Assembly (NCBI RefSeq): GCF_964204865.1
Contig: NC_135261.1
Span: forward strand, 16,678,001 to 16,742,000
Source of the DNA: Styela clava
Taxonomy: Eukaryota
Direction of reading: 5' to 3'
Length of the DNA stretch: 64,000 bases
Below are positions 4,836 to 60,098 of the stretch, piece after piece. The notes under the pieces were generated by a model. It was not told the origin of the DNA. It made no database searches and saw nothing but the letters and a program-made list of their open reading frames with translations. Both the position numbers and the translations under genes were made by a program. Numbering within the stretch: the first letter of the stretch is position 1; every line of letters starts with the position of its first letter.

Positions 4836-5604
4836 ATGGACGCCATCTTGTGCCTATTGTTCTCGGCAATTTAACACAGCGCCTTATGAGAAGTTTCAAC
4901 ACAATTATTGAAACATACCTATTATTTTCACTAATATTTTGCGTACAAAAATTTTGAAGGTCGCGTTTTGAAGTAGAATCTTAGCCGTACATGCTTATAT
5001 CCTTTCATGTTGGCCAAATTACATTTATAGTACATTAAATTGTCTTTGAAGACAAGTATACCGGTTCCGAGTTGCTTCCGAAGTAAATTGGCCATTCTAA
5101 TCGTCATAATTAACCATTTGACAATGGCGTTCCTTATGACGTCACAGATGAAAAGTTGTATGTTTTCTTCGAAATTACCGGCCGACCCAACTTTGCTTCA
5201 ATGGCCGTTTCTATTTTCTGGTTGAAATTTTTCGGTCGTCAATCTCCATAATGCTCTACTGCTCAGCTCAAAGCTGCGCTAGAAGAACAAATGACATTGT
5301 AGGATTGTTGCGGAGACATTTTACAGCCTCAAATTAGCGTATCACTATAAAATCTTTGGAAATATGACCAAAAATGGTTCTACGCTGTGTTTGGGGTCAA
5401 ATTTAGCGCATTGGTTAGTTTTTTTTCCTAAATTGCGTTATATATTAAGATAGCATATATCTTAAAGTTCAAAATCCACCCTTCAGTTTCATTCTAGCAC
5501 TTGTACCAGCGGACTTATTCGATTCGGTACAACAACACGACGAAAATTTCCCATAAGACTCCATTGTTTCGCGTTTCCCAAATATGGCACAAGATGGCGT
5601 CCAT
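4836..5604. repeat. segment bounded by a 19-bp inverted repeat, probable MITE relic
   Basis: ATGGACGCCATCTTGTGCC (4836-4854) / GGCACAAGATGGCGTCCAT (5586-5604); no TSD found. Confidence 0.45.
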
Positions 5605-6269
5605 GAACTTGCTTAACATTAGGCAAGTTGGTTGCCGGCCGTTGGTTTTACCCAAAGTGTTATAGTCACTTTGGTTTTACCTTAATTGCAAGCTTTGCTC
5701 GCCGTCCAAGTAACCCGCATTTTGTTTGTTCGTTTGTTACTGTTGTATTGTTTCGTTTTACGCCAGAGCGACCAAAACAGCATTTTTACTGATTGATATT
5801 CATTCTGACAGTGAAGTATTATTTCGACAAGATACTGAAATCCAGGTGTGTTTTCAATATCCGCCACTGTAGGCGCTATAATTTCGAACTGGAATATGTA
5901 CAAGTTTCGTAATCTTTTGTTTTTAATTTAATCCAGTAAACTTTACTGCTTTATTATGCTGTCGAAGTAAGCGGATTTGCCCGATTTCTTTGTGTTTACT
6001 ACCTCTGTGTGAGTCTGTTTGCAGTATCCAGGTATTGTCGTGTACCGTACCTGTCCTATAGCATAAATCGAAATTATAACTGTTCTTTGTGCCATATATG
6101 TGTCGACCTCTTCATTCAGCTGACTTTGGTTCAGGTCAAAGCTCAAAAACTGCATCAGCATATCTTTTGTTGTTCGCGCGTGACTCGAAACGCTTACGTT
6201 AGCAAACTGATTCAATACTGTGTGCAGATGTCCCATTACCAACCAGTACAAACTACTAAAAGGATCAGC

Positions 6270-7334
6270 ATGGAGAATTGGCTTACCGCTGCAATCGTCA
6301 TAGTGTCCATAATATTTTTGGCAAGATCGGACATAAAACTTCACTTGGAGGACAAACATCTACAGGGCCAAGCCGTTGGTCATTCACAGGGCGTTTATTC
6401 GGAGGATTCCTGCGATGAGTTTTTCTTTGGGATGCCATTTCCTAAAATAAAAAGTGACCAGACTGGGTTAGTTAAGCTTTGCCAAACGCAGCAGCATGAT
6501 GGATACGTGGGTCCTGCAGTTTATGCAACCTTGTTCAGCATAACAGATAGAATACCTGTTTACTCAGCAGATGTTATAACACTGTATCCTAACAGTACAG
6601 GGTACATGCGACCAGATGAAAAATATTGGAACAGAGTGGCTTTGGAACTTTGTAATATAGATCCCTCAAATCTTCCATCATTTCCTATCTCTTCAAGATT
6701 AGGTTCAGCAGGAAGTGACACGGTTGCATGCGGAGCGAATCAAGCTATCAATAGGGATTATAAGGGTAACTGGGAAGCACTTGGTGTTGACAGGGGGCAT
6801 TTAAACCCAAATGCAATCAATTTCCAAGATCAGGAAAGTCAGGTTGGCACATTTACTTTAACGAATGCTGCTCCACAGTTTTCTGCATTCAATCAAATTG
6901 CATGGGAGCAATATGAATGTGTGACTAAATACATTGTCATGAAGTACACCCCACTTCAGCGTGTTTACGTCGTTACTGGGACGATGGGACAAGCAAAGGA
7001 TCCAGCTGGAAATCTTTTATGGATGAATGATGGAACGCTGGATAAGAAAAACAGAGTAAAAGTTCCCGAGTACTATTGGAAGGCAGTTTGCTATCCTGGA
7101 AATCCTTGGGACTCGACAAGTCCATGGGCCTATGCGATCATAGATAAAAACATAAAGGACGCTGGAAATTCTAGTCCAGACAATATCATGCCTGTAGAGA
7201 AATTCTCATCCATGTATTTTGAAGATGACGTATTCGCGGAACCTTGCTTGAGTGCAACGATGGGGCCAATTCAAAATCTCTTCGACGACTGGACAAACCA
7301 CGTAAACAGCATTTGTCACGGCAGAAGAAGATAA
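6270..7334 (+). CDS. secreted DNA/RNA non-specific endonuclease (Endonuclease_NS, ENDOD1-like), intronless CDS
   Basis: Likely start at ATG 6270 with a signal peptide (MENWLTAAIVIVSIIFLA). Motifs YATLF..RIPVYSA, DRGHLNP, TFTLTNAAPQ..FNQIAWEQYE, VVTG, VPEYYWKAVC. Confidence 0.9.
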   Translation: MENWLTAAIVIVSIIFLARSDIKLHLEDKHLQGQAVGHSQGVYSEDSCDEFFFGMPFPKIKSDQTGLVKLCQTQQHDGYVGPAVYATLFSITDRIPVYSADVITLYPNSTGYMRPDEKYWNRVALELCNIDPSNLPSFPISSRLGSAGSDTVACGANQAINRDYKGNWEALGVDRGHLNPNAINFQDQESQVGTFTLTNAAPQFSAFNQIAWEQYECVTKYIVMKYTPLQRVYVVTGTMGQAKDPAGNLLWMNDGTLDKKNRVKVPEYYWKAVCYPGNPWDSTSPWAYAIIDKNIKDAGNSSPDNIMPVEKFSSMYFEDDVFAEPCLSATMGPIQNLFDDWTNHVNSICHGRRR

Positions 7335-8464
7335 ATTTAATACACATATAAACACAAATTGACTACCAATCTCATGTCTTATCAACATATCATAACAGCA
7401 TTGAACACACATTTTATTTTATAGCATTAATTTGCAGAACCCATTAATTAGCATAATTTTAAAATAGTATATAGTGATTATTTGCCAACTTTTTTTTCAT
7501 CTTTAATGTCTTTAATTCAGCTGCTGATATCTCATTAAATTACAAATATATGTTACATAACCTTTCTGTTGTTACTATGCCGTAATATTGACCTTGCTTG
7601 TTTACTGCCTAAACTTTTGTATAGTATTTTTTTTTCTTCCAACATACCACTGTATACAACCTTTCAATTTGATGTACATATGTGATTTTGAGACAATGGT
7701 TCTCTGATTATGTTTCCGTACTTTCTGTTGAATTCAATATGATTGTATAAAACTATGTATTTGATATTGTTTTAAACCAGTTGTGTCCAACCTCCGGCCC
7801 ACAAGAAGTTTGCTGCCGATCCTTGGCCAACTGTTTACAATAACATTATAAGTAAAACTGAGACAAAAAACTTTGTGTATCATACGTTTGTAATGCAATA
7901 TCACACAAAACACACGACCAAAGCATGTGGTATTTGGTATGACTGGAACGGCAAGAGGGGACGTTATCGAACATTTGGTTTTTTGGTCAAGTAGAGGGTT
8001 GTTTGCTCAATATTTCATAAATCTTAATCAAGTTTCAAACCTATAACCTGAAAAAATATACGCAATGAAATTACAGAAAAAAGTATCATCAGGAAATGCT
8101 TTTCTATTTGTTTCAATGATATTTTTTTACGATCAAAAATGTCAAATATAAATGACACACCAATTACGTGGCACAGCATGCGAGTGTGTAAATAACGTTC
8201 AAAATGTGTTTTGCAATAGAAGAAATAGTTTCATGCTGTCTATTTATATCTTATATTCCACCAAAAATTTATGGTTATGACATTTTTTAATGTGTGACCT
8301 GCGGCAAGTATGATTTCCAAGTAGTTATAAAACTGTGCCTCATTTGTAAAATCAAAATTGCCTTAAATTTTGCTTCTTTTCGTATAAATACTACTATATT
8401 GAAGAGCAATTTTTTGTTGTTTTCTCCTTAGTTATCAAAAGCCTATTATTGCACTAGTTTAGCA

Positions 8465-10375
8465 ATGAATTGGTGGTTATTGGCAGTGTCATGTAGCTTA
8501 TTAACGCTATCGGTTGAAAGCAGAGAGTTTACAGTTGATTACAAGAACAATGTGTTTCTGAAAGATGGCGAGCCATTTCAATACATCTCTGGGTGCATGC
8601 ACTATTTTCGCGTTCCTCGATATTACTGGCGTGATAGGCTTCGAAAGATGAGAGCATGTGGATTGGATGCGGTGCAAACATATATTCCGTGGAATTTTCA
8701 TGTAGTAGATGGTTCTTATCGATTTGATGGCGAACATGACATTGCGGCTTTCCTCGAAATGGCACAAGAGGAGGGTCTTCTTGCTATTATAAGAGGTTTT
8801 CCCTTTTCTGACACAGAGTGGGACATGGGAGGCTTACCCAGTTTTCTGTTAAAATCAAAATATAATCCTCGAGAAAATCCAATAGGTCTCCGAACATCTG
8901 ACCCAAGATTTTTGTCTGCTGTAAAGGATTGGCTTGGTGTCATACTCCCAATATTGAAGCAATATTTGTATAACAATGGGGGCCCGATAATAATGATACA
9001 AATAGAAAACGAATACGGGAGCTATTACGCACAAGATACTACGTATTTAAAATCATTATACTATGATATTGATACCATGCTGGATGAGAATGTCGTCCTT
9101 TTTACAACGGATGGTGACGGCGCTAGCTATTTGGAACATGGGCATATTGATGGAGTATTTCAAACAGTAGATTTTGGACCAGGGGCAAATGTCACTTCTT
9201 CTTTTACCCTACTGAGAAAATTTCAGCCTGATGGGCCTCTTGTCAATTCAGAATACTATACGGGATGGTTAGATCATTGGGGTGAAAACCATCACAGGAC
9301 ATCGTCGGAAGCGATTTGTAAAATATTTGATGAAATGCTAGCAGCAGGTGCATCTGTAAACTTTTACATGTTTACCGGAGGAACTAATTTTGGATACTGG
9401 AGTGGATCAAATGGTGGTTCAATCTCACAAGTTACAACCAGCTATGACTATGATTCACCAATAAGTGAAAACGGAGATACAATGGAAAAATACTTCAAAA
9501 TTCAAGAAGTTATTTCAAGATACAAACCACTGCCTCATATATCAGTACCACCGAATATTACAACAATTAGCTATGGATCATTGAAGTTAACTAACCAAGG
9601 CTCTTTTTGGGACCATTTAACATCACTTTGCCCGGATGGGCCTGTTATAGGATCTTCGCCATTGTCATATGAAGATTTAGATGTGGTAGGAGGGTATGTT
9701 CTATACAGGACCACTGTACCACCATTGTTTCAAAGACACGGTGGCCAAAATGTCAATTTAACACTCGAGAATTCAGTTCGTGACCATGCAAAGATATATG
9801 TCAACCAAAATTATGTTGGACAACTGGAAAGAGGTTCACAGACTTTAAATTTAGGAGCATGTTCTGAAGGAGATCAAATTGATATATTAGTTGAAAGCAG
9901 AGGACGATTGTCTGTCGGTACTGGCATCAATGATACCAAAGGGATTGATGGGAAAGCGAAAATTTCAATTGGCACAATATACATAGCCTGGTTAACAAAT
10001 TGGGAAATGTATCCGTTGAATTTGAAAAACATGGCTCTAAATTTAAAAAGCAGTGAACAAACAAACGGAGTGAATATGGAACAGGTACCTGCAATATACA
10101 CAGGAACATTGTTTGCTCAAACAGTCGCAGATACTTTTATAGACTTATCAGGAGGCAGCTGGACAAGTGGTTATGTTTTAGTAAATGGTTTTAATCTAGG
10201 AAAATTCCAACCAAAACAAGGACCTCAAATAACTTTGTATCTCCCAACAAAGACTATTTTAACTGATGAACCAATTCTGCATTTCACACTTTTTGAGATG
10301 AATCCGAGTCCAACATGTGCAGTGGCATCAAGTTCCTGCACAATTAACCTGATTGATCATCCAATGATTGGGTAA
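8465..10375 (+). CDS. GH35 beta-galactosidase (GLB1/GLB1L-like), intronless CDS
   Basis: Signal peptide; FLKDGEPFQYISGCMHYFRVP; QIENEYGSY (acid/base Glu); NSEYYTGWLDHWG (nucleophile Glu); TSYDYDSPI; GPQITLY. Acceptor TTTTCTCCTTAG ends at 8431. Confidence 0.93.
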   Translation: MNWWLLAVSCSLLTLSVESREFTVDYKNNVFLKDGEPFQYISGCMHYFRVPRYYWRDRLRKMRACGLDAVQTYIPWNFHVVDGSYRFDGEHDIAAFLEMAQEEGLLAIIRGFPFSDTEWDMGGLPSFLLKSKYNPRENPIGLRTSDPRFLSAVKDWLGVILPILKQYLYNNGGPIIMIQIENEYGSYYAQDTTYLKSLYYDIDTMLDENVVLFTTDGDGASYLEHGHIDGVFQTVDFGPGANVTSSFTLLRKFQPDGPLVNSEYYTGWLDHWGENHHRTSSEAICKIFDEMLAAGASVNFYMFTGGTNFGYWSGSNGGSISQVTTSYDYDSPISENGDTMEKYFKIQEVISRYKPLPHISVPPNITTISYGSLKLTNQGSFWDHLTSLCPDGPVIGSSPLSYEDLDVVGGYVLYRTTVPPLFQRHGGQNVNLTLENSVRDHAKIYVNQNYVGQLERGSQTLNLGACSEGDQIDILVESRGRLSVGTGINDTKGIDGKAKISIGTIYIAWLTNWEMYPLNLKNMALNLKSSEQTNGVNMEQVPAIYTGTLFAQTVADTFIDLSGGSWTSGYVLVNGFNLGKFQPKQGPQITLYLPTKTILTDEPILHFTLFEMNPSPTCAVASSSCTINLIDHPMIG

Positions 10376-10913
10376 ATTTTCACCAACCATATAACGAAAT
10401 TAATATGGCCGTCTGTAAATACTGCTACAAATGCTATCTGTAAAGATAAGACGGCTATGTGCATAGGATATATCAGGTATCTGTAAAGCTGCAATTGTGA
10501 ACCATGATTAGCATTCTGCAATGATGAAATTTAATATTAATTCCTCCATTCTTCACTGTATAAAGCAGTATATCTTATACTCCCAAATTTTCAAATCTAG
10601 ACTATGCAAAATCTCTAGCAATATTATATTGTTTGATTTTCATCACATATTTCAATAAATATCTTCATCATATTAAAAAAGAATTTTATTTAAAAAAATA
10701 GCACAAGCTGCATAGGCATAGTATAGTGTGAAATAGGTGATTTCAGATGAGAATTAGAAAACAAAATAAGGAAAAGTAGATACGCAAACGCAATTATTGC
10801 TATTCATCACAAATTTAGTCAATGCCACAACCCAACCAATGATAGGTGATTTCTATACAATGATGTAAATAATAAGGTACGATACTTTATTTGAAGTTCA
10901 CAGGCAGACTCTA

Positions 10914-11160
10914 TTGGCCTACTGGTTGGAGCGCAGTGCTAAGAACCTGTAACCCACTTGCCATCGCACCTGTGGATAGCTTACCGCGACTCCGCAGATT
11001 CGGATCGGTTTGGGGATAATTATATGAGAGAAGATTGCTAGACTACCTGCTGTTGTGAGGTGGTTCACGTAACCACTGGTCGGTTATGGTTTCCTCCAAG
11101 CCCATGCATCTGAAATAAATAATTGGCTTACTATTTTCATACCAGACATCAAATGGATGA
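10914..11160 (+). mobile_element. tRNA-derived SINE, decayed copy
   Basis: Shares GGTGGTTCACGTAACC.CTGGTCGGTTA.GG.TTCCTCC with the copy at 18438-18780. Confidence 0.7.
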
Positions 11161-11359
11161 AAGCAATTTAATTCTTCGAGTATGATAATTCTGAAAACTA
11201 ATCAAATTATTGTTTATATCAACTTTTCAACATTCAAATTCAAACTGTTATTTAGAGTATATCTTTTGGCCATCTCTGGCTTTTAGTTTTTTCAGTATTA
11301 TATAAAGTGTGATCAATTTTGTGGTAAATACAACCAACCCAGTGAGTGTGTCCTTTAAA

Positions 11360-13321
11360 TCAGTCAGGAATTGACATAGCCTCGTCGGCTAATCCAGATT
11401 TATTGCTTCCAGAAGAAATATAATCAGAAGTGTTGTAAATATTAGGTGAGGTGTATGGCGCTTTATTTGGTACAACAGGAGGCACCACTTCTTTTTTCTG
11501 AGTGAAAACAGAGCATAAAAATACCAAGAGTGCTGTGTATGAACAAAATGATGTGCTTAACTGAAATTCTTACCTCCCAAAAATTAAACCTAATTCCTTC
11601 AAGGGCTTTCTTGATAGAACCCATAGTCCCAAACTCAGCTTCAGATTCTTTCAAACTTTTTTCAACAGAATCACAATCTGATTTGATAACTTCAATGAAT
11701 TTCTAAAAAAGAAAAATATTATGTTGTGACTTGTGATCCAATTTCCAACAGATCGAAGATTCGGAATTCTTAAATTTACGAATAATTTAAAATCTTTTTA
11801 TTTGGAAATTTGCAAACTGGGCATTTGACATCTGGTGTCTTGACAGGAAATTTGTTTTTATTCCCGTTCCCACAGGGATGCCTAAAACTAATCAAATGTT
11901 CCATTGGGATCACAGCAATCTTTTGTTCAGTAATATCATATTCCTATGAGCATACAAAAGTTGAAGAATACTTCTATGAATATGGCCCAATTTAGAATAC
12001 ATTCCATATTCGAAAGTATTATTTCAGAATGTATTCAGAATAATACATTATTCAGATTTAGCCATCCCAGATTGCACACAATTTTATTACCAAACAGCAT
12101 TGCGTGAATGAATTTGTATTGCATGCAATAATTATCGGTCTGCCATACCTCCAAGTCATCAATTTTTTTATAGATGAGTCTCATCTTTTCTCGTTCAGCT
12201 CGAAAATTTTGCAAAACTTCATCTGTCATTTTTGTTGAATCTGTGCGTATCTGAAGATAGTGAGAACGATTTAAACATTTACAGTTGAACCTAAAATAAA
12301 ACCCAATTACCATACACCTACCATGTCCAGCATTCCATAAAATTTGTCCAAACTTGAAAGCACAGAGTCTATGCTAGCTTCAACATCGATTTCCTGCAAT
12401 TGTTAAATATAAAAGAAATAAGTCAAATATAATTTTACCTCAATTTGCAAAAATTATTGTTGCAAAACTGAATCAATATATTATATTCATGAAATGGTTG
12501 ATTGGTTAGCCATTCTGATCTATAACCTGGATATTGGGTTATTTTCATATTTATCTCGGGTAGAGGGAAGCTGACAAATAGAAAACTCAATTATGTAGTG
12601 AACCACAGGCCTTGTCTGGTTACTATTTGTTTTAGATTAGGGGTGTGCAACCTGTGGCCCACAAGAAAAAATTGTGTGGGCCAGAGATATCAGTAAGTGC
12701 CAATTTTGAATGGTGTTCGGCCCTCAAAACAAAATTTTTAATTCAGTTCAATCTGGTACATGCGAGTGATTCCAATCCCTTTTCGTTGTAAAGCCCCTAC
12801 TTCACCCATGATGTTACAATGCCCCAACAGCTAGCTTGTGTGAAGCGAACAACACGTGCCATCAAATCAATAACCAAAATTTTTGTGCCAGCAACTAATA
12901 GAAAGCCTATGTTAAAGAGAAATGCAACCCGAGGATTCACCCAGTAATTTGTCTCCGGCCCTTATGTATTGGAGGTTAGTGGTTACATACCTCTGTTCTC
13001 AATGCATTGATTGTGGAGAAAGCTGTAAACAAACTTAGGAATCCTCCTGTCACACCCTACAAGATTCAAACCTGCTCAAGGTAATCGGAGGTGAGGTGGC
13101 AAGCGACATGATACACCAATAGTCATATGGAAATAAAAACTCAAATTCATTTTTTTACTCAACTTATATAATATACCGGTAACTAAATTTTCATAACATG
13201 CGAGACAATATTGTACCTTGTTCTTACAAGATGGGTTGGATTCTATATCCATATATGCTGCATAATCTTCTGCACATTTTGCAATGGACTGGTCTTCTGT
13301 ATTTTCTTGTTCACTATCCAT
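11360..13321 (-). CDS. BLOC1S4: BLOC-1 subunit 4 (cappuccino/BCAS4 family); exons 13321-13217, 12393-12322, 12250-12149, 11702-11574, 11497-11360
   Basis: All introns GT-AG, phase 0. Product MDSEQ..AEDYAAYM..EIDVEASIDSVLSSLDKFYGMLDMIRTD..MRLIYKKIDDLEKFIEVIK..ESEAEFG..YTSPNIYNTSDY matches the cappuccino/BCAS4 pattern. Confidence 0.8.
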
Positions 13322-13752
13322 CACTTTTTATTTTTATATACCGGTATATAACTAATAAATACATTAAAACATCATATCATTGAAATACATAATAGTAGTA
13401 GCAGAATAGATTATTCGTTCTGAAATGGGCAAATCATTTGGCATATGATATATCATTGAACGCCGAACGGCATCATAAAATATACATTTTATGGTTGGAG
13501 TTTCATTCATTTGAACAAACTACCCAAGAAACAGTCAATAGATTTCTATCAATGTCAATCAATAGACAAATTGATACAATAGAAATATTAGTCAAATATA
13601 GAGCAAAAAAGTGAAACAGTAACATATACATATATTCAACTAGATCATATAATTATTATTGAAGATGTCCTCCTTTATCAAGTATCCTTTTTTAAATCGA
13701 TAAAATGGTTTGCCCATCAGCGCAGTGGTATATGTTGTTGTCAAGTGCTGGT

Positions 13753-13968
13753 TCACCAGAATAAAATGCTAATTCCCATTGCCACACAAGAAATTGCAAC
13801 ATATGGACTTAGTCTTTCTCCAATCCTCGCAAATTTCCAAAATATTCCAAGTACTCCTTCTTTGTTTCTGTCCAATAAGCTTGGTGCAATTGCTCTTACA
13901 TAAGCACAAGTGCAGATTAATAACAATACAACAGTCAGCATACTCTGGAAGTTGAAAATTGCTACCAT
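13753..13968 (-). CDS. TMEM167A: protein kish-A (TMEM167), intronless
   Basis: [49 protein letters not shown] is the diagnostic kish sequence. Confidence 0.95.
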
Positions 13969-14701
13969 GTTGGTTCCAGGATTTGAACTAAGTATGGAAA
14001 TAAAGGTTATTTCCTATGCTGAAAAATATGAAATTAAGAAAAAAATATATAAACACTAAAAAATGCACAAAAAAAGTTTAGCATGTTTGTATGAATACAC
14101 TTGATTCAATTATAAGTCAATTTATAGTAAAGTTCAATGAGATTATGTCTCTGTTACATGCTCTCCCTCATTGTCTGGAGTATAACAAATACGTATGATT
14201 GGTACATTCCAAATCCCATTATGTTCAAACAATCCAAGCTCAACAATATGAAAACACTCTGTGAAATAACCTTATCGAGTAATGAAATTAGGAAGAACAG
14301 GGGGTTTTCCTGTAAAGGAAAATGTAAAATCAGTGTTGCCCCCCTCGAACCGTTCTGTGGCCCATTGGGTAGCTACGGCCTCTGGTTGGGAACTACAGTT
14401 TTAAACTCTCCGCCCCATAAAGTGGTCCAGATAGTTACTTACAGCATCCTCCAAGCTCATGCATATGGATTGATTGAACAGTTAGCTATCTCCACTCCCG
14501 ACCTGGACTTTAACATGACGAGGGCTGTGGTCCACCATGTAAAAACCCTAATAGGAAAAAGCCAATTCAAGCATCATGAAACTATAGAAAACGCTACAAG
14601 GTCTTAACAGTTTTAATAACACAATCTATCAATCCATGTGAAATTCGCTTACGTTAACAAAAACAAATTCAGTACACATAAACAATTTGCGCAAGGTATA
14701 A

Positions 14702-16666
14702 TTAAATATCAATGTCCATTGGTTCTAGAATTTCCTGGGAAGTTTGAGACTGCAGACAATTTAATATTGAGTCTTGTTCTTTGATTAAAAATTCTTTCAA
14801 CAAAGTTTCCATGCAGTCATCACTTTTTCTAACTTGTCTTTTCATTGCTTTCTTGAAATCCTCACTTGCACCCTTATTGACGCCTCGAGTTATTCTTTGA
14901 TGACTAGAAGGGGCATCAGAAAGAAGAATCATTTCAGGTTCGGAGTTGTTTTTTAAGAAAGCTATTTCCTCTAGTATGTCCAAGCAAATGATATAGTCGA
15001 ATAATAAAGTATAAGTGAATTTCTTTTTTTTAGATATCAGATCCAAAGCTTGTCGACATTCTGTTTGCCATTTCGGCCAGTCATGCTGACATAACACTAA
15101 CATATGCCCCAGTATAGCATCATCCTCGCCAGTTTCCATAACCTTAGCGAAGCTAGAAATGAATATATGAATCCAGAATGGTAAAAGGGTTGAAAAAGAT
15201 AAAGGCACTAGTATCAGATCAGTATTATTTTGTGTTTTTGGAAAAAGAGATATTGATAACAAATCAAAATTTGTTGCGGGTGCCTTTGAAGGATTTTGAT
15301 CAGAAATAAGGCTGAGACATTCCATTATACTTTGACAAGCCATCAGCAAATGTCCATTAGTAAAATATGACGACACTAATTGACAATGGCAGCGTAGGAG
15401 TATAGGATGGCGTAAATGTGATACATCTTGCTCCATAAGATTGTTAATTCTTGTCAAAGAACTTTTATGATCTTTCTCATATGAAAAATGATCTGATAAA
15501 AACAATTGAAACCATGTCCATTTTTCAATTTTCCAACGTCGGTAAAGATGGCTGAAATCTTTTTCAAAGGAATCGTTTGAATGAAGAATGTTCCAAGCAT
15601 CTCGAGCTACTAAGAACTGTTCTCTTATTTCAATGTCTGACCCTCGTAAAGAAGACTTTTCAGATTCTGTGTTCTCCTGTTTCCAATTCATGAGAAGAAC
15701 GTAAGAATGACGTGCATCATTTCGATCATTATATATATGGGATTCTAACATCTCCATATACTTTATAGCTGCTTCAATGAGAATCAAAATAGCTGTATAA
15801 AATATTTGTTTCTTATTTATTTTCCCAGTCAAATCAGTGCGACTTTTTTTATGCAAGTCTTTGATGTGATTTATCCTATCTTGTAGAGTAGAACTTCTTC
15901 CCGGAACTGGTTCCCAATCACACTGGATTGAAATGAGCTTTCTCAATGCTTCCAGTTTTTCCCAACTTTCATCTAGTTTTCCTATTTGTGATGAAGCTAT
16001 TTTGGTATCAGTTGTGAAGTATGTTGCGTAAAATTCTGCTGCCTTTTGTAACCACTTATAAAAGTGTTTATGCGATATTTCAACAGTCATATTTTTGCAA
16101 ATAATGGGTAACACCTCACAAACGAGCAGTCGTCTGTAATAATTGAGGGGAGAACTTCCGCCTTGAACTTTTTCTTCATCTACTAATCTTTCTGCTAATG
16201 GAATTCCATATTTTACAACAGAAGAAGGATATTTTTGTGTGAGTATCAGCGTCATTTTACATTTTAATGATATGTCAGTTTGTCGGTCAGCACAGATTGT
16301 AATCATTCTTTGTTGATTTGCATTAGGAATAAAACCAAATATATCTTGCTTAAATTTATCATTTCCAGAACCTTTATTCTCTAACGCAGTCACTATCATT
16401 TCAATTTCATGCCATAGTGTGGATTCATGTGAAAACTCCTGAAGCATTTCAGATAGAAGAGATGCACATTGTTTTGCGTTCTTTTCTCCATACTCTAATT
16501 TATATGCTTCGTAAAGCACAGTGAAGTTATTGGGGAAAAGTGATTTAGCCGTCAATAACCATGATCTAGCGGCAAAAATATCAGAATTTGCTAAACTTTG
16601 GGCTTGCTGTAGCATCCATTCAGTTGGAGGAACATTGTCACTCAATGTTGGGTCACTAAGCTTCAT
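14702..16666 (-). CDS. INTS10: Integrator complex subunit 10, intronless
   Basis: ATG at 16666. N-terminal DIFAARSWLLTAKSLFPNNF..YEAY; C-terminal LGHMLVLCQHDWP, YIICLDILEEIAFL and TRGVNKGASEDFKKAMKRQV. Confidence 0.92.
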   Translation of the reverse strand: MKLSDPTLSDNVPPTEWMLQQAQSLANSDIFAARSWLLTAKSLFPNNFTVLYEAYKLEYGEKNAKQCASLLSEMLQEFSHESTLWHEIEMIVTALENKGSGNDKFKQDIFGFIPNANQQRMITICADRQTDISLKCKMTLILTQKYPSSVVKYGIPLAERLVDEEKVQGGSSPLNYYRRLLVCEVLPIICKNMTVEISHKHFYKWLQKAAEFYATYFTTDTKIASSQIGKLDESWEKLEALRKLISIQCDWEPVPGRSSTLQDRINHIKDLHKKSRTDLTGKINKKQIFYTAILILIEAAIKYMEMLESHIYNDRNDARHSYVLLMNWKQENTESEKSSLRGSDIEIREQFLVARDAWNILHSNDSFEKDFSHLYRRWKIEKWTWFQLFLSDHFSYEKDHKSSLTRINNLMEQDVSHLRHPILLRCHCQLVSSYFTNGHLLMACQSIMECLSLISDQNPSKAPATNFDLLSISLFPKTQNNTDLILVPLSFSTLLPFWIHIFISSFAKVMETGEDDAILGHMLVLCQHDWPKWQTECRQALDLISKKKKFTYTLLFDYIICLDILEEIAFLKNNSEPEMILLSDAPSSHQRITRGVNKGASEDFKKAMKRQVRKSDDCMETLLKEFLIKEQDSILNCLQSQTSQEILEPMDIDI

Positions 16667-16860
16667 TATATAGAAAATTACACCAAAACTCTGTGAAATC
16701 AAGAATGAAAATTAGTGCAAATGACCAAATGTTTTAATAAAATTAAACTTCATACCCAGTTGAAATTTTTTTATACAAATATAATTGAAATAGATGATTG
16801 CTAGAAATGAATGGGTCATAGAAGGTAACAGAGTATCTATCACTCATCCACTGACAGGAA

Positions 16861-18255
16861 TTACAAATAACAGAAGTGTGATGCCCTTGGAAAAGGAATA
16901 ACATCTCTTATATTATTCACTCCCAATAAAAATCTTATTAGACGATCAAACCCCAGTCCATAACCACCATGAGGAACACCACCAAACTTTCTCAAGTCTG
17001 AATACCATTTGTATTCATTTTCTAGTCCTAAAGAAGAGAGACGTTGGTTTAGCACATCATAGCGATCTTCACGTAGAGTTCCACCAGCCATTTCACCACA
17101 ATGTGGAAAAAGTAAATCAAACGATGCAGATGTACCGTCTGCGTCATCATTATGTAAAGCATAAAACGGCTTTAGTTTAGCAGGAAAATTTGTAACAAAA
17201 ACTGGGCGATGACCGTGATAAGTTGTTATGAATTTTTCATGCTCTATATTCAAATCATCACTCCATTTTATATCTGTGGATAATTTATCACGGTTGGATT
17301 GTAAAAGTTTAACAATATCTTTGTATTCTATATTCAAAAACGACTCATTCGCACATCTTTCAACAATGGTTTGGTAATTCGGTATATCTGCTTTTTGATG
17401 AAACATTGAAAGTTCATTATTGCATTCTTCTAATGATTTCTTAATTATATGACGTAAACTATCTTCGAGTATATTTAATAAATCTTGCATTGACTTTGTG
17501 AAAGCCATTTCAATTTCAAGCATATGAAATTCGCTAACATGCGTTCTTGGTCTACTTTGTTCGGCACGAAATGCTGGACTTAGCGTATAAACATTTCCGA
17601 TTCCCATTGAACAAGCTTCTAAATGCAGTTGACCGGAAACAGTTAAATATGAAGGAATTCCAAAGAAATTCTCTTTTTCTTTCTCATCAGTGTCTAAAGT
17701 TACAGAAAATAAGGCACCTGCTCCTTCACAGTCATTTGAAGTTATTATAGGTGTATGAATATGTGTAAAATCATTCTTCTGAAAATAATCATGTATCAGC
17801 ATTTCTACCCGATTACGAACTCTCAAAATTGAAGCAGTCATATTCTGGCGAGGACGCAAATGAGGAAACTGTCTTGTATAATTAAGAGGGTGATCATATT
17901 CACTTTGAAGGGGATATGACTCTGGATCGCAGGTGCCATATTGTTTAATTGATTTACAAAGTATTTCCATGTTAGGGTTCTTGTGCTGCCTGTGAATTAG
18001 TTCACCAGTGATTTCCAATGCAGAACCATAAAAATACTGATCAGTAGAAAATTCTCCAGTCGATAAAACCACTTGTAAATTTCTTATACATGATCCATCA
18101 TTGATATCCAAAAATGCAACTTTTTTATGATTTCGAACAGATTTTACCCAGCCATTTATGTTCACTTCAGTGTTTGACGGTATTCCTGATAAATTTTTTA
18201 TCCGAACCTTTGTAGCGGATGAGTAAAGTCTCCGAAACACATGGATGAAAGACAT
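16861..18255 (-). CDS. NARS2: mitochondrial asparaginyl-tRNA synthetase, intronless
   Basis: Presequence-like MSFIHVFRRLYSS; GWVKSVR..FLDINDGS OB fold; LTVSGQLHLE; FRAE..HVSEFHMLEIE; WYSDLRKFGGVPHGGYGLGFDR. Confidence 0.95.
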   Translation of the reverse strand: MSFIHVFRRLYSSATKVRIKNLSGIPSNTEVNINGWVKSVRNHKKVAFLDINDGSCIRNLQVVLSTGEFSTDQYFYGSALEITGELIHRQHKNPNMEILCKSIKQYGTCDPESYPLQSEYDHPLNYTRQFPHLRPRQNMTASILRVRNRVEMLIHDYFQKNDFTHIHTPIITSNDCEGAGALFSVTLDTDEKEKENFFGIPSYLTVSGQLHLEACSMGIGNVYTLSPAFRAEQSRPRTHVSEFHMLEIEMAFTKSMQDLLNILEDSLRHIIKKSLEECNNELSMFHQKADIPNYQTIVERCANESFLNIEYKDIVKLLQSNRDKLSTDIKWSDDLNIEHEKFITTYHGHRPVFVTNFPAKLKPFYALHNDDADGTSASFDLLFPHCGEMAGGTLREDRYDVLNQRLSSLGLENEYKWYSDLRKFGGVPHGGYGLGFDRLIRFLLGVNNIRDVIPFPRASHFCYL

Positions 18256-18437
18256 TAATCTACTGACTAACTATGTCTCCATTAAATATAAAATAAAACT
18301 ATTTTAATAGTATTTACATAGGATTTTCATATTTATATTGATGAGATGGCTTTACCGTTATGATATAAGAAAACCTTGATAATAGAATTATGTCAGATTC
18401 CAACATCTACATGGCATTCTGACATCTCCAAAATGAA

Positions 18438-18780
18438 GATAGGATAGGATTTACATATTTATCCCAGGGGAGAGGAAAGCCGATAAGACGGCTTATCCAT
18501 ATGGCGAACCACGGCCTCTCGTCCGGTTACCATTCCGAGTCGGGTATGGGATTAGTTTTACTGTATTGTTTGTTTTCGGAAGCATGGACTTGGTGGTGGA
18601 GGAAGCCGTAACCGACCAGCGGTTACGTGAACCACCCAACGACGGCGAGGAGTCCAGCAATCCTCTCGCACATAACCATCCCTGCATGGGATTCGAACCT
18701 GCGAACCCACGCAGAGTAATTAGAGGTGCGGTGGCGAGCGTATTCCTAACGCTTAGCCTGTTGAGCCACACCGCCGCGCC
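18438..18780 (-). mobile_element. tRNA-derived SINE, near full-length copy
   Basis: Head GGCGCGGCGGTG, A box TGGCTCAACAGG, B box GGTTCGAATCC, (ATCCT)n tail; several related copies in the window. Confidence 0.85.
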
Positions 18781-27970: not shown

Positions 27971-28862
27971 TGAACAAAAGATCGGAATTAAGGTATTGAA
28001 CTGATTTTCAAGTTGGATTGACGTGATGTGGGATTTTAATACTGTGTGACGAGAAAAGACAAGTGTCCAAAGTGTTGAAAAATTACAATAAATATGGATA
28101 GATTAGGACCAAAAGTCTTTAACATTTTTTTTGCCTATGCTCGTTCTAACCTTTTTTTATCGTTAATTGGAAATGGTAGATTAATTAATTGGTGGTGGGT
28201 GGTACAATTTTTAAAATTATTGCGTGGTCGGAGTGTGTGACATAAGAAATTTATTCAATTTTTTTTTATTCATTGTATGTAGATTTCTTATGATAATATT
28301 TTGACCCATAACATTTGAAGCTGTTGAAACAAAAACCTCCTCTATAGAGCCATTGAAGTTTTTTGTCTGTATACCTAATTGCTAAAAACAGTGTATATTA
28401 CCCTTCTATATTTTGTGCAATTCTATGAAACTGCCTAAAGTGAAGCTCTCTAAACCTGCCAAGAGAAGCAATCGTATGAAGCATCACCATGTCATTTTTA
28501 ATTTAAAATATGATTAATTAAATTCAGTGTCTGCTATTGAATGCAATAATAAATAAATATATATAGAATCTAGCTATTTGTGTTTTTCTTTTAGTGTTTC
28601 TTGACCCATTATAAAATAGAATGAACAATATTGCTGTGCAGGGACTGAGCACTCTTGGGAGTGTAAAAGTCAGGGGTAAGAAGGTAGTTTTGCATTTCTT
28701 TCAGTTTACAGTACCTAAAATAGCGTTTGGAAATTATTTGGTATCTATGGCGATTTTATCGTTCTCCCGGTGTTGTTGACGATTAATATAGCTCGGTTTA
28801 TGCCGGCAGATTCATTTATGAGCGAAGACAAAGGATCACAGCCGACAGGAAAGATTTAGAAT

Positions 28863-30450
28863 TGAGCCAGGAATGTCTTCTTGCATTTGATTTGGCATAT
28901 TCCTTGCAATAACAACTGGTAAAGTTGTCATTTTCCTTATCATTCAATGAGGTAAGACTGGTGGCTATCGGTTTCAAATCTTTAAATATATTGTTGGAAT
29001 ATTATTACAAATTTATAGTGCAAGCAATTGGTACCAGGGCTGCATAAAATTACATACTAGTCCAGGGATAGCTAATTATCGATTTTAATCGGTAAGTATG
29101 TTGATAGGTATTTGTCTGTCTGTCTGTTAGATGCACGCAATATCTCATGAAAGCGAGATTGAATCTGCTCCAGATTTTGCATGTGCATTCATCATGTCGG
29201 ACCAGAAGCCTATTAATTTTGGATGAATTATGTCGTATAATTAGCGAGTTATTAATTAATTAGTGATGGGACACAAGGTGTCACTATGGAGTAAGAGCGC
29301 TGTTTTGGGGATCCCGACTTTCAATCGATAAGTCTTCGGTCTCTGATCGATATTTTCGTTTGAATATTGCGACCTTCGAGTACCGAATATTGCACACACA
29401 TTTTCAGCATAGCGCAGCCGCCCACATTTTGATCAAAAACATTTTCACTGGGCGCATAGGTGTGAATACTGTTCCATCACATCTTTTCACTTAGAAGCAA
29501 GAAAACAACAAATTTACAATCTTATCACACATTTTCTTTGTATTTTTACAATGATAATATTATTAGGTTTGGTAATAACAATGTTCCGGGATATTAGAAA
29601 AGTGAATAAATTTATGTGGGGGATTTTAGAATGTATTCGAAATTCCAGATTCAAATATATTTTTTCAGAATGTTATGGGCTATGGCCATCCCTGCGATAC
29701 TACATCAAACTACGTGATATTTAAAATCTCCAGCAAACTCTCTTTGTTTGTTGAGGATGCATAATCAACTATTCTATGGATTTTAAGTTTTTACGTGAGA
29801 AATTTGTACTTTCAAAAATATGACACTGCTTCACAGCCCTGATTAGTATAAGCAATCGGTTGTAGGGAATTTCGGGTTGGCGATTCTATTTCACCATTTG
29901 TGCACGGCAAGTTCGCACTTTGTCTGTATGCCTATCGCTAAAAACTGTGTATGTTATCTTACTATATCTTGTGCAATTGTATGAAACTGTCTAAAATGAA
30001 GCTCTCCAAACCAGCCAAGAGAAGCAATCATATGAAATGTTCCCATGTCATTTTTAATTTAAAAATTATTAAATAAATTCAGCGTCTGTTGTTGAATGCA
30101 ATAAATATATATAGAATCTAGTTATTTGTGCCTTTTCTTTTTATGTTTCTTGACCTGTAAAAAAAATAGAAAAAAAATTAATTGATGCGCTAGGGTGCGC
30201 GACTTCCCCACGTTGAGGCGAGGGTCATGTCATGTCCTACGGCCACGGGTTTGGAAAACACATATGCCGCGAACACATCGTCACATTTTTTATTATCTGT
30301 TTCAGGAGATATTTTTGCAAATCAGTGTTTAAATATTATTTAGTATTAAGGCGCTTTTATCGTTATCCCGGTGTCGTTGATTCAATTTATGCTGGTGGAA
30401 TAATTTACGAGCAACGATAAAAGCATCACAGCCGTCAAGAAAATTTTAAA
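28863..30450. repeat. diverged tandem duplicate of ~27396-28860 (LMAN1/GPATCH1 3' junction)
   Basis: Colinear copies of LMAN1 exon 11 (TCA>TGA stop), intron 11, the distal 3' UTR (GCCAAGAGAAGCAATC) and the GPATCH1 terminal exon. Confidence 0.85.
29076..29361 (+). mobile_element. Helentron-associated (HINE/DINE-1-like) non-autonomous element
   Basis: subTIR TTATCGATT / AATCGATAA, (TCTG)n microsatellite near the 5' end, 3' hairpin TCGGTCTCTGATCGA followed by a T-rich end. Confidence 0.65.
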
Positions 30451-46501: not shown

Positions 46502-49182
46502 CTACTTTATGTTTTGTGAATCGATTACAAATCCTGGTGAGCACTCTGAATTTTCTTCGTCTAAAAGCCACTTTTTCAAAGAATATAGATTTCGACTTAG
46601 CATATGTCCCGAGAATAATGGCCGATACATTTTAGAAGGGTCAAATTTGTCTTTGTGAACATCATCGACGTGAATACCATGAATTTCTCTGCAGAGTTGA
46701 CAAAATCCCACTTTTCTAACTCCCATTGGATGATCGTCTTTCACGACTTCTCGCCATCTGAAAAGTTTGAAGAATTTGATAGTAACATTTTACACAAAAA
46801 TAAAATTAAAAAATATCCTTGATTTTGAACAATCTACAAGATGCGATTGGATTTTAGTGCGATTGGCAATTGCAATATCTTCTCTTCAAAATAGAATATT
46901 GTCAAGAATAATTTATTCTAACGATATATATATATATGTAAAGTGGGTATTGTGAAATCTATAATAAGTCTTAAACTTTCATTATAGCATAAAACAATTG
47001 TATTTCAAATCAATAATGACATTGAAATATTAAAATTGAAAAGAATTTCACAATGTCGAAAGTTTTAGCTTAGAAACTTTACTGACAGGTGGGAACTTAC
47101 GACCAAATATATAATAACAATTAAGTGGTTCAGTTTAAGGAGAAATATAAAAATCTGACCTAAAATATTGTGAATAAGCTGTTTCGTTGTGGTCCAGATA
47201 TGTGAGGTAATCCACTAAATCCATTGCGGACTGAAAATCTTCTATGTGAATAAATGAATCAGGCGGAGCAACTTTTTCATAATCCTGTCTTTTCGCTCCC
47301 CAGACTACCGGTACCACGCCAGTTTCCAAGTTTCTATAAAAGTCGCTCGTAATATAATCTTTACAGTGATGTGAATCTTCAAAAGCAAGGTAATATTTAT
47401 ATGATTGGGTAATATCTTCATCATTCAAACTACTCGAATCTTTTTTTGCAGGAAAGCAATCACCATATGCGTCCAATTTTAGACCGTGATCGATCAGTTC
47501 TTCAATTTTTCGCAGTCTTAACTCGGCTCCTTTGGTATTATTACAATTTGAAATGAATACCATCGCCAATCGAGATTTCTTTTCCACTATACTATGGATT
47601 TGATTTCCTTTTCGCCTAAGAACTCCGTAAGGAAAATGAAAATCAGCGTCGCGTCTGAAATAATGAGGGGATAGTTCTGTAAATGTATTTTTAATGTATA
47701 ACGTTAAAGGTATTTTTGCCAGAAAGAACAGAAACACCGCGAATTTCAGTTTTTGAGATGACAATGAATTCATTTAAATCAAAATAATTTAAACGGGATA
47801 AAAATGTTTTGGCGATTTTTACCTGTATCCCATGGTTGCGTTGAAATGATATTTTTCATCAAAATCAAAGTTTTTGCCATGTTTTTCAGCTAATGTCAGT
47901 GGAGATTCTGTGATCCAATATATAAATAGCTTGTTTTGACGTCTAAAAATATTAATATTATTATTTGTGTGCCATGACTATATAACAAAAAAGATATACA
48001 ACATCAAATGTATATTCTTATTTTCCACTAAAAATGTTAAATTTCATTTAAATCTTGGATACATATTATCAAAGTTATCTTACCTTTGTGGTGATGGCGG
48101 CATCGTACTGGGAGAAATCTTTTTAGAATCAAAAACAACAGCTGCTGTGAGAGAGTTGTTGATCTATATATAAAAATAGGTAAATTATTTATTACTTTTC
48201 TGACGGAAACGAAGGCGACTTGATATATTCTGTCAGTACACCGAGGGGGGATTTACGAGTAAAGTCTGCTATTATGACGACAGATTTCCTGATATCGTTA
48301 AGTTTTATTACAGCTTTGAGTTTTCACGATGACGTCATTATACTTTCTATATACTTTTGTATGACATCACAGTACGAAGCAGAAATTATCATATATTTCA
48401 ACGTCACAAATTTTCAATTAATAAATAGCCCCCTCAACGTAATCCACTGTATACAAACCTCTGATCGATTTTGAATTATTTTACAGCTTCCGCAGATATT
48501 AGGATCCAATGAATACTGAACTGTGTTGTTTTCCGGTGGATACCAAAGTAAAATAAACTGTCAAAAACAAGATTATAGTTATCACGATTTTTTAAAATAA
48601 CTTGCAATTCATGTATTTTGACGGTGCAACCTTAATTTATCAAGACGTAAAACATTTTATGCGATACTTTATCATGTTGTTTAAAAAATTCGCACCGAGC
48701 TAAATATCGTGCCATACTATAACTCCTATTGTTATTATTATTATATATTCGTAATACGTTCCTATACCCTCAGGAAATTAAGTCCAACTATAGTTGGATG
48801 ACATACAATATCTATAAATTCTACGCAGCTGACCTACTTGGTATTCTCAACACCTAATATAAAGGAAGCAGTTATTCTTGATTCTGTGAAAATAGTTAAC
48901 TTTAAAGTTATCTAAATATATATATATATATGGTTTCCACTGCATCATATTTTATTATTGTTATGACGTTTTTACCTTTTGTGTGGATGCCTTCTTAAGT
49001 GCATTTGGAAGAAGATGAGCATAGTGCTGGCGGTTTATCTGAAGACTCGAAAAATCAAATCCTCTATATATGTCATCCGTGCTTTTTTTGCTCTTGCGTA
49101 GAAATATGAAATAAATTAAAATAGCGCAAAAGACAACTAGTATAATCACACGTTTACCCCTTTTACATCCTCTACCATTCAT
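46502..49182 (-). CDS. alpha-1,3-fucosyltransferase (GT10); exons 49182-48976, 48557-48459, 48163-48084, 47942-47823, 47654-47160, 46757-46502
   Basis: Type II TM anchor; YWITESP; FNATMGYRRDADFHFPYG; FISNC; YKYYLAFEDS..CKDYIT; VPVVWG; PPDSFIHIEDF; YFRWR; FCQLC. Confidence 0.9.
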
Positions 49183-49973: not shown

Positions 49974-52900
49974 ATGGCAGCTGTTAAAGCACCAAAGCAG
50001 TGGCCTCTGAAGAAATGTGAGACAATCACTTCCTTCGAAACATGGAGACAAAATCTGCTATACCGTAAAAGCGCCTAACTTCGGACAAAATTACTATATT
50101 TTCGTCAATAACTCGGCCATTTATTGTCCAAACGGTGCCAAAATTGCTCGGTAAAACATTCGTGCGGTAATTTACATTCCCTGCAAATTTCGGTTCAATT
50201 GGACTATTTTTACTATTGAAATAATCGATATTTCTTGCCATCTGACCGTTATCCTTCACTGCCCTAACTTCGGACAGTCATTTTCTTCACTGCGTAACCG
50301 CGACGCACAGAGAGAAAGAGGCTTCCGATGCGGATGGCGTAATCACGTCGTTGCGTGAAGACGCTCGATCGTCGTCGTAACGTAACATTGACGTCACGAC
50401 GAAAATGCATTATTTGAAACTTCCGTCGTCCTATGTATACATCTTTCGTTCGTTATTTTCGATACTTCAGATGAGTATAATAACACGTTAGTAATTTTAA
50501 TCAGGAAATGCATACGTAAATATATCTGATGCAAACCGTTTCAATCCACAATGAAGTATTTTAACGGGCTTCTATCGAAGTCTTTGAAGTATTAATATTC
50601 TCGACGGATAGATATTTTTTATTCTGCGCGGTTATCTTTATAAATGATAAATTATATCAAACACACGGTAAATCCGATTGTAAAGTTTAATTTTAAATTC
50701 AACTTAATCTTGTAAACATGTAGGTCCCGTTTATTTGTTGGAGATTAAATTTATTTTTAATTTAGAATGAATAAAATTCACCCAGGCCGTATTCAATAAC
50801 TGTCATTTCGACTACTAATCATAAAATAATGGTCAAGTCCGTGCACTGTGCCATATGTACGTTGGAATTATCAAAGTTTTATATATTCGATTTTTAACGT
50901 CATCGATTAAGTGTGACATGTATTTTCATTAATGTAATTTTGGCATATATTCATACATAACCGAACAAAATACGAAAATATTACATTGGAACGCCGTCTT
51001 TATCTTAACGGAAATTGTCATTTTGGCTCCGTTGTGTCTGGCGTCAAAATTCATTTCCGCGACGCAGTGTGACGTCGTGTCGGAAGTGAGCGAAAAATAA
51101 TCTACGTGAGGTTGACGTAATTTTTGACGCTGCGTGAAATCTTAATATTCTTACGGAATTTATAATTCAGAATTTTAGGTTTTATTTAAATCTCGTACGA
51201 CATCTTGCGATCACTCAAATAAATTATATACATTGTTGTCGCCCTCTACCGAATGATGGTATTTTGACGATGATAGCTTCAGTAGGAGCGACGCTCTACG
51301 CCGTTGAATGCCGGGCAGTCAATTTTCGGCAAAATTTCCGTTTTTTCACCAAAAAAATAATTATGCAACATTAAAAAAGATGAGAATAGATGTAGATATA
51401 ACAGCGCAACCTATAATAAATAAAATTAGCAATATACGGCGCGTTTTAGCCAAGATATGACCGTTCAAAAATTTTGTCCGAAGTTAGGAACTGTCCGAAG
51501 TTAGGCGCTTTTACGGTACACTTTAGCCCTGGACAATAACTTTACGCCTTTTCTTGCCCCTGACGTCCAATGGGAGAAACAAACCAAAGCTAACCCACTG
51601 AGAGGTCTGACCGATGATGGAGAGGCAGTAGCTGAAGACCGCAGAAAGTCGGCAATTCAAAAAAACGCCACTTTAGAGTTGATGCTCGGACAAATAGCAA
51701 ATTATTGTCCGATTATGTCTCGCAACACCATCGTCAAGAATTCCACATCTTTGAACTGTATTTGGCAAGCGCTCCGCATGCATTTTGGGTTCCATACTAC
51801 CGGCGCCCATCTCCTGGAGTTAGCCAATATCAAACTTGAAGATGGGGAAAGAGCAGAAGACCTTTACCAACGCCTAATGTCTTTTTTTGAAGACAACCTC
51901 GCTACCACAAATAGCTCAATTACTCATCACGGATATGTGCCAACGGAAGACGAAGACTTAACTCCTACCTTGGAAAATACAATCGTTTATTTCTGGTTGT
52001 CTTTGTTGCACCAGGATTTACCAATGCTCGTTAAGCAACGTTATGGAACTGAGCTGCGTTCTCGCACACTAGCTTCTATCAAACCTGAAATTTCAGGAGC
52101 GCTCGAGTCGCTATTAGACGAGCTGGCCTCCATGGAATATGCCAAAGTGTGTAGATCTCTTCACTCTCAAAAGTTGAATCCAAAGAAGGATAGTTCCAGC
52201 CGCCGCAACATTAACATACGTCAATCATGCCCTCTGTGCAAGGAAGGGGGTCGACCATTCAAGCATTACCTGAGCCGCTGCCCTTTCCTTCCTGACATCG
52301 ATAAGCAATTCATGGCTAAAGCACGTATGATCAGTACGGATCACGATGACATGGATCCTTTGGTGGACATAAGTTCAGCATCTTCTGACTGTCCTGAGGT
52401 AAATTCTAACTCTAATCATTATATTTACCGCTCACGACGTGTTAACATATGCCATTGCCCTCACCTGGTCTTGTACTGTAAAGGAAAACCCATCCGTGTC
52501 GTGCTTGACACTGGTGCTGAGTGTAATATGATATCTCTATCCCTTGCTAGTCTTTTGGGCGCCAAAATATCAAAGTGCTCTCAAAAAGCTCTACAGGCTG
52601 ACGGATCATCATTTTTAAATGTACTTGGCGAAACAGCTATTACCCTATCACTTGATGCTGTTTCTATGCCTTTCAAAGCACTGGTAGTTCAGCATTTAGA
52701 TTCCGACATTTTGGCTGGCACCCCGTTTATGGTCGAGAACGATATCATTTTGCGACCTGCAAAGCATACCATCAGTATTCGCAACCTTCCTCCACTGCCA
52801 TATGATGATAAACGTCTCAATAGTGAGGCTAGTCACCCGCCTCATATTATTAGACACTCCAGCAAGTCACGCGTCCTTTGGCCTGGCGAAACTATGACAG

Positions 52901-55900: not shown

Positions 55901-56196
55901 TTCGAGCCAATTCGTACAAAGTTCGAAAGTCTGATTGTTTTTTAGTTTCACCCACATTACCTTCCCCTTCCCAAGTTATACCAGATACCACAATCAATGA
56001 CGAGAACTCTGAGGATTTCTATCCTCCGCTACTACCAAGCTCATTTGTAGATTTACTCCCCCAATTACCTACTGCGAATGTTCCCCCTCCTGGACCACCA
56101 GAATTATTTTTGCAAGATGGCCCAGCACCACAATCTCGCTACCCCCGTCGTGAGCATCGTAAGCCTTCATATTTGAGTGATTACATTTTAGAATAA
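49974..56196 (+). CDS. gag-pol polyprotein (~1588 aa once the MITE is removed), interrupted at codon 30
   Basis: [30 protein letters not shown]|TLALDNNF.. joins the 1505-aa ORF in frame. Zn knuckle CPLC..H..C; protease LDTGA; [12 protein letters not shown] and KIADDLY; RNase H VTDGS/EIEAL/TDSK; integrase HHCC plus D-D-E (AADV, RTDS, AEK). Confidence 0.92.
50063..51516. mobile_element. Tc1/mariner (pogo/Tigger-like) non-autonomous element inserted in gag
   Basis: Perfect 25-bp TIRs CCGTAAAAGCGCCTAACTTCGGACA / TGTCCGAAGTTAGGCGCTTTTACGG; TA TSD (50061-62, 51517-18); internal CCTAACTTCGGACA repeats. Confidence 0.93.

Positions 56197-58263: not shown

Positions 58264-60098
<1,835 letters not shown>

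Follow-up and report, generated by a model that had tools for sequence, protein, structure and literature searches.

The subject of this study is a cluster of four unrelated housekeeping genes on one strand of a 64,000-nucleotide (nt) stretch of the Styela clava genome (contig NC_135261.1, positions 16,678,001 to 16,742,000; hereafter the window), in which three intronless genes stand ahead of a multi-exon BLOC1S4 gene. We consider it likely that the four genes form one operon of the kind known from Ciona. The fuller account, which we hold with reasonable confidence, is that the downstream mRNAs of this operon are freed by spliced-leader (SL) trans-splicing and that NARS2, INTS10, and TMEM167 are cDNA-derived replacements of their parents. 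The genes are consecutive and lie head to tail on the minus strand in the order NARS2 > INTS10 > TMEM167 > BLOC1S4. The initial annotation, which was made from the sequence alone, had described stop-to-ATG gaps of about 195, 735, and 430 bp and three upstream coding sequences without introns; indeed, the gaps measure 194 nt (NARS2-INTS10), 733 nt (INTS10-TMEM167), and 431 nt (TMEM167-BLOC1S4), and each of the three open reading frames (ORFs) runs uninterrupted on the minus strand. Protein clusters at 90% hold Styela clava RefSeq entries with the names mitochondrial asparagine-tRNA ligase (first gene) and integrator subunit 10 (second gene); the product of BLOC1S4 is BLOC-1 subunit 4-like by its RefSeq cluster member (181 aa), with the same name in the protein atlas at 0.94. 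All four BLOC1S4 introns are in phase 0, and searches of the PDB with the BLOC1S4 exons gave no significant match.

RNA was found across every boundary of the cluster. Positions 5600-18450 were compared with four runs, all in the form of assembled contigs; X1, X2, and X9 were treated as RNA because they pass over the four introns of BLOC1S4, none of the runs being recorded as RNA. These introns are spliced out in contigs of all three RNA runs and retained in the fourth, DNA-like run. One X1 contig of 6853 nt starts at 17280 and runs through INTS10, TMEM167, and spliced BLOC1S4, spanning all three gaps; an X9 contig (14628-18278) spans the NARS2-INTS10 gap, its 5' end resting on the A of the AG at 18278, and an X2 contig (13431-15036) spans the INTS10-TMEM167 gap. 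The first gap is thus bridged in X1 and X9, the second in X1 and X2, and the third in X1. At the same time, some contigs end close to predicted acceptors. In X2, the NARS2 contig ends at 16693 and the INTS10 contig begins at 16688, with the 4 nt between them uncovered according to bin arithmetic, and the chance of a break at the 16691 acceptor is roughly 1% for that site and 3% for any of the three. In X9, depth arithmetic indicates that a 619-nt BLOC1S4 contig with a 7-nt deletion matches the genome up to 13352-13353 at most, which leaves at least 20 letters unmatched; the upstream RNA ends at 13404, compared with the inferred 13353 for the downstream one. The unmatched letters have the pattern expected of a leader ending in AG and, judged from depth, are possibly such a leader. 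The bin arithmetic closed four of five validation bins, the fifth needing an unlisted contig, and gives upper bounds only. Upstream of NARS2, RNA cover stops at 18233 (X1), ~18233 (X2), and 18278 (X9), and the DNA-like run goes further. The trans-spliced operon proposed at the outset gains indirect support from RNA across all gaps and from contig ends at acceptors; an SL on its mRNAs, a single start site, and the order in which the genes were inserted are still proposals.

Acceptor-like signals had been placed just ahead of the three downstream genes, ending at 16691, 14019, and 13352. They were scored with a matrix for which 27 introns of the window served as the training set (4 supported by RNA, 23 picked by eye), and the chance level was taken as the share of the 2501 window ATGs that have an equally good AG within 60 nt. 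The positions are correct, and two of the signals outscore every other AG in the gap concerned: the AG at 16691 (4.5 bits, about the median score of genuine acceptors) ranks first of 7 and is equaled at 4.5% of window ATGs, and the strong AG at 14019 (10.4 bits) ranks first of 39 and is equaled at 0.2%. The BLOC1S4 signal is not above chance by its sequence alone. Upstream of NARS2, the AG at 18277 is the best of 23 within 500 nt, yet weak (2.8 bits). The three gaps contain 3, 16, and 17 ATGs, none of which lies between the acceptor and the start codon. According to the scanning model of translation initiation, RNA left uncut would, with ATGs upstream of the acceptors, translate the downstream genes poorly.

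In our model, a single transcript would start from one promoter upstream of NARS2, the SL would be added at 16690, 14018, and 13351, and the gaps would be mostly 3' untranslated region (UTR) of the preceding gene. A promoter divergent from LMAN1, or shared with it, had been suggested and found no support: RNA stops at 18278 or earlier, and 2.8 kb with at least eight repeat blocks separate the NARS2 side from the LMAN1-like ATG at 21074. A shared promoter is possible, and the distance compares with a median 5' transcribed region of 458 nt in trans-spliced genes of Ciona (PMC11155486). In Ciona intestinalis (robusta), operons are resolved by a single SL (PMC1488885; PMC2760879) and their cistrons abut (PMC1488885); operons hold ~20% of the genes, and 60% of the 5'-most operon genes are single-exon, the significance of which was called unclear (PMC2760879). 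Operons of four genes account for 36 of 1,310. The Styela cluster resembles them in its unrelated same-strand genes, RNA across boundaries, mRNA ends that may abut at an acceptor, and single-exon upstream genes. It differs in that Styela is a stolidobranch, that three intronless genes stand in a row, and that no SL or SL RNA gene was seen among the contig ends and matches listed; furthermore, a repeat and an early ATTAAA lie in one Styela gap, which may contain true intercistronic RNA. The locus is probably an ordinary tunicate feature that works like a Ciona operon.

How did the three upstream genes come to be intronless? A genome search found no intron-bearing parent of NARS2, INTS10, or TMEM167, although it scored only the best candidates, exon by exon, and could have missed small exons. 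NARS2 is matched in full once, and its three further matches are an intron-bearing cytosolic-type enzyme and an Asp-tRNA ligase at 31-47%; INTS10 has a single match, TMEM167 a single match plus one distant paralogue exon at 42%, and BLOC1S4 a match at this locus only. In a metagenome scan, INTS10 sequences closest to the Ciona and Clavelina proteins occurred in three loci, in six separate segments in one (L021) and eight in another (L022), of which the third (L023) is a near copy; L021 and L022 contain no credible match to NARS2, TMEM167, or BLOC1S4. In Clavelina, INTS10 lies on a 25.07-Mb contig and NARS2 on a separate 28.79-Mb contig, and isoforms of the latter differ by an internal 16 aa, which indirectly implies an intron. 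The vertebrate TMEM167 orthologue is multi-exon. Since INTS10 is multi-exon in another, ascidian-like genome and INTS10 and NARS2 are not adjacent in Clavelina, both the lack of introns and the close placement of the genes seem specific to a lineage, whichever the direction of change.

The structure of INTS10 and the Clavelina positions fit retrogene replacement, and replacement with relocation is, in our opinion, somewhat more probable than its opposite. The features of orphan retrogenes that were seen are an intronless coding sequence, intron-bearing orthologues (INTS10 and, indirectly, NARS2), and a parent that was not found; a poly(A) remnant and a target-site duplication would be expected to fade with the age of a copy. 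The processed-copy origin put forward in the initial annotation gains indirect support from single copies, a multi-exon INTS10 elsewhere, and the different Clavelina contigs of NARS2 and INTS10, and the comparison of synteny it had called for separates these genes in Clavelina, and INTS10 from its partners in L021 and L022. According to this history, NARS2, INTS10, and TMEM167 would be processed copies that took over from intron-bearing parents. They may have been kept here because DNA inserted between the promoter and a trans-splice acceptor would be transcribed at once and would leave the downstream mRNA unchanged; that capture occurred specifically in such a discarded 5' region is a tentative proposal, which we would rate somewhat below even. 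Orphan retrogenes of Ciona and SYCP1 of amphioxus are likewise intronless and single-copy, with intron-bearing orthologues elsewhere and no parent found. Unlike those, the putative copies in Styela form a stack ahead of a host gene, and the accounts of the former that were consulted do not connect replacement with the growth of operons. A newcomer gene absorbed into an operon via leader trans-splicing is known from the RFC140-flp operon of Hydra, which, unlike the Styela cluster, is cnidarian, comprises two genes, and has a horizontally acquired newcomer (PMC3273482). Our literature search, in which subscription journals were mostly missing, found no paper linking retrocopies to operon building and no published account of Styela operons or trans-splicing. 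Within the window, a 1563-aa open frame on the plus strand (51505-56196), which we take to resemble an intact LTR retrotransposon polyprotein, is a possible source of reverse transcriptase.

The layout of the cluster is not special to this locus; it recurs at two others in the genome. Synthetase genes with a full-length open frame were found at five loci at least (NARS2, DARS2-like, ThrRS, PARS2-like, and a class I enzyme of 924 aa); at least about eight others are in exons. Two of the four intronless synthetases outside the window belong to similar chains. In one, the DARS2-like > TBC gap (256 nt) has its top AG 29 nt before the ATG; in the other, the UPF0172 > Pop5 gap (577 nt) and the Pop5 > PARS2-like gap (257 nt) have theirs at 34 and 33 nt. 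The top AG thus lies 29-34 nt before the ATG in three of four outside gaps, two of these with an intervening ATG. The UPF0172 chain has a divergent intronless zinc-knuckle ORF upstream. One ORF of a convergent intronless pair (L047) is presumably FARSB, from likeness or Pfam family. The names EMC8, TBC1D19, and LARS2, where we assume them, likewise come from sequence likeness or Pfam family and not from a named match. On contig C14 (L035 7092-5585, minus strand), a kish-like (DUF1242) exon is followed after 245 nt by a same-strand ORF for an O-fucosyltransferase.

The main rival to a trans-spliced operon is that of four independent compact genes with small promoters in or under the 3' ends of their upstream neighbors, the bridging RNA being harmless read-through, as has been proposed for the fuhc locus of Botryllus; we regard it as unlikely. 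A number of observations nevertheless weigh against the operon. Contigs are graph paths, and a bridging contig does not demonstrate a single transcript molecule; the long X1 contig even continues into the convergent GLB1 gene. ATTAAA occurs at 16738 (16738-16733, 42-47 nt before the 16691 acceptor) and at 14617, and each of the three gaps contains TATA-like hexamers, as would suit independent genes. The BLOC1S4 acceptor is weak (the AG at 13352 scores −2.4 bits, ranks fourth of 10 in its gap, and is equaled at 40% of window ATGs), the match of the BLOC1S4 contig in X2 breaks off at 13325-13328 or earlier, off the acceptor and unexplained, and the X9 result, too, could come from an indel close to where the contig ends. 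No SL was seen among the 24 listed of 476 loose contig ends, in a table crowded by repeats, and the INTS10 contig of X2 and the NARS2 contig of X9 match the genome in full, without a leader. Two Ciona-based patterns led to no SL RNA gene among the first 100 matches of each search, and the Styela SL may differ. Outside the window, the TBC > WD gap (1307 nt) has no acceptor near the ATG; the ThrRS, PARS2-like, and 924-aa synthetases have no close same-strand downstream ORF, and the last has no acceptor nearby. Botryllus and Styela belong to the same ascidian family. Trans-splicing is described in Botryllus, where fuhc-sec and fuhc-tm share with our cluster a short gap (227 nt) and linked read-through transcripts, with no SL on the downstream gene; unlike the Styela genes ahead of BLOC1S4, both are multi-exon (PMC3691228). 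What argues for the operon is that contig ends coincide with acceptors and not with positions ~30 nt past the TATA-like hexamers, that top-ranked acceptors lie 24-50 nt before the ATG in five of the eight gaps scored, and that AATAAA and ATTAAA are absent from the 50 nt before 14019 and before 13352.

It is also imaginable that the acceptors serve cis-spliced 5' UTR introns behind short noncoding first exons, which we hold to be quite improbable. Donor-like sites at 14652 and 14442 lie ahead of the strong 14019 acceptor, BLOC1S4 has two RefSeq records that share one protein sequence, and the 20-nt unmatched end could be a short exon. Contrary to such cis-splicing, which the initial annotation had named as speaking against its operon, none of the 15 listed of 41 joints leads into 16690, 14018, or 13351, contigs in X1 and X2 cross 14019 unspliced, and the TMEM167-BLOC1S4 gap has no donor-like site and the NARS2-INTS10 gap one non-consensus site only. 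A further alternative accepts the operon and assumes that introns were lost in place, by gene conversion with cDNA, and that the genes were joined by ordinary rearrangement; this is a weightier objection, although we doubt it. Intronless housekeeping genes are common in the genome, some standing alone, and a relict leader is not apparent: out of 16 letters of the Ciona SL, 12 putative trans-acceptors match 8.5 on average and 27 cis-acceptors 7.9, a difference that is not significant (p = 0.09). Tunicate genomes are scrambled, and non-adjacency in Clavelina does not tell which lineage moved. However, loss in place would have removed every intron from three adjacent genes and spared those of BLOC1S4 and of the LMAN1-like and GPATCH1-like neighbors, and the replacement of genes by retrocopies is described as a relatively common event in Ciona (PMC5803294).

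The search for the SL RNA gene also produced candidates that were rejected. SL RNA gene arrays are often left unassembled. With two mismatches allowed, the Ciona SL pattern had 160 matches, compared with 63 for the control; a tandem array on contig C3 accounts for the excess; this array proved to be the spacer of a tRNA array and has no GT donor, and ten further matches have flanks without SL-like features. The tRNA array itself (C3:24.86-24.96 Mb) consists of dozens of units of two alternating types. A pattern of donor plus Sm motif gave 275 matches versus 200 in the control, and the 11 examined were mostly dispersed repeat families. An Rfam scan of the window gave 0 matches, and a bacterial promoter scan, a method that does not apply here, gave results at chance level.

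Downstream of the cluster, on the plus strand, an intronless non-specific endonuclease gene (6228-7334) precedes an intronless beta-galactosidase gene, GLB1 (8465-10375), by 1130 nt. Contigs of X1 and X9 span the gap, which has a modest acceptor at 8431, and the pair is a candidate second operon that converges on the first; an exon-split beta-galactosidase paralogue (42-43%) lies on contig C1. RNA contigs fully cover 10375-11360, from the GLB1 stop to that of the convergent BLOC1S4 gene, which suggests that the two 3' UTRs overlap. On the other side, the intron-bearing neighbors, which we take to be LMAN1-like and GPATCH1-like from sequence likeness or Pfam family, are convergent, and 28460-28960 between them holds what by eye appear to be degenerate duplicates of their last exons and 3' ends. 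Minus-strand exons at 47135-47773 resemble an alpha-1,3-fucosyltransferase and those at 58264-58710 a Rac GTPase.

Coordinates of the cluster, its predicted processing signals, and similar chains elsewhere in the genome (window positions unless a locus is given)
Feature	Position	Strand	Basis or detail
NARS2 (mitochondrial Asn-tRNA ligase), intronless coding sequence, 464 aa, 5'-most gene	18255-16861	-	uninterrupted ORF; Pfam tRNA-synt_2 (class II tRNA synthetase)
INTS10, intronless coding sequence, 654 aa	16666-14702	-	uninterrupted ORF; Pfam INT10
TMEM167 / kish-like, intronless coding sequence, 71 aa	13968-13753	-	uninterrupted ORF; Pfam DUF1242
BLOC1S4-like gene, 181 aa, 5 coding exons	11360..13321	-	exons 13321-13217, 12393-12322, 12250-12149, 11702-11574, 11497-11360
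AG upstream of NARS2 ATG	18277..18278	-	21 nt before ATG; start site or acceptor
Predicted INTS10 acceptor	16691..16715	-	24 nt before ATG; matrix and contig ends
Predicted TMEM167 acceptor	14019..14037	-	50 nt before ATG; matrix
Predicted BLOC1S4 acceptor	13352..13364	-	30 nt before ATG; weak by matrix; X9 contig end inferred there
Dispersed repeat in INTS10-TMEM167 gap	14194..14443 (approximate limits)	.	depth spike, loose ends, contig breaks in 4/4 runs
Chain of three genes on one strand, all intronless: DARS2-like > TBC-domain > 1175-aa WD40/EF-hand	L030 1170-9740, contig C17		
Chain of three genes on one strand, all intronless: UPF0172 > Pop5/Rpp14 > PARS2-like	L033 6805-8488 and L034 1746-3053, contig C4		
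Convergent intronless genes: Phe-tRNA ligase beta-like ORF; 924-aa class I synthetase	L047 3269-5044 and 9677-6903, contig C8		

In sum, the Styela cluster joins two observations that had stood apart, the single-exon state of 5' operon genes (PMC2760879) and retrogene replacement in Ciona, and offers a test case, of modest importance, for the intronless state of upstream operon genes. A row of three single-copy genes without introns, placed upstream of a multi-exon gene, together with a multi-exon INTS10 in another, ascidian-like genome, makes a model of retrocopy capture testable with existing genomes. It may be, and we put this forward as a conjecture with somewhat less than an even chance, that ascidian operons grow by the capture of retrocopies in the discarded 5' regions of trans-spliced genes, where immediate expression would let the intron-bearing parent be lost. 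Through repeated capture, such chains would arise independently in each lineage, and the single-exon state of 60% of the 5'-most operon genes of Ciona would be explained.

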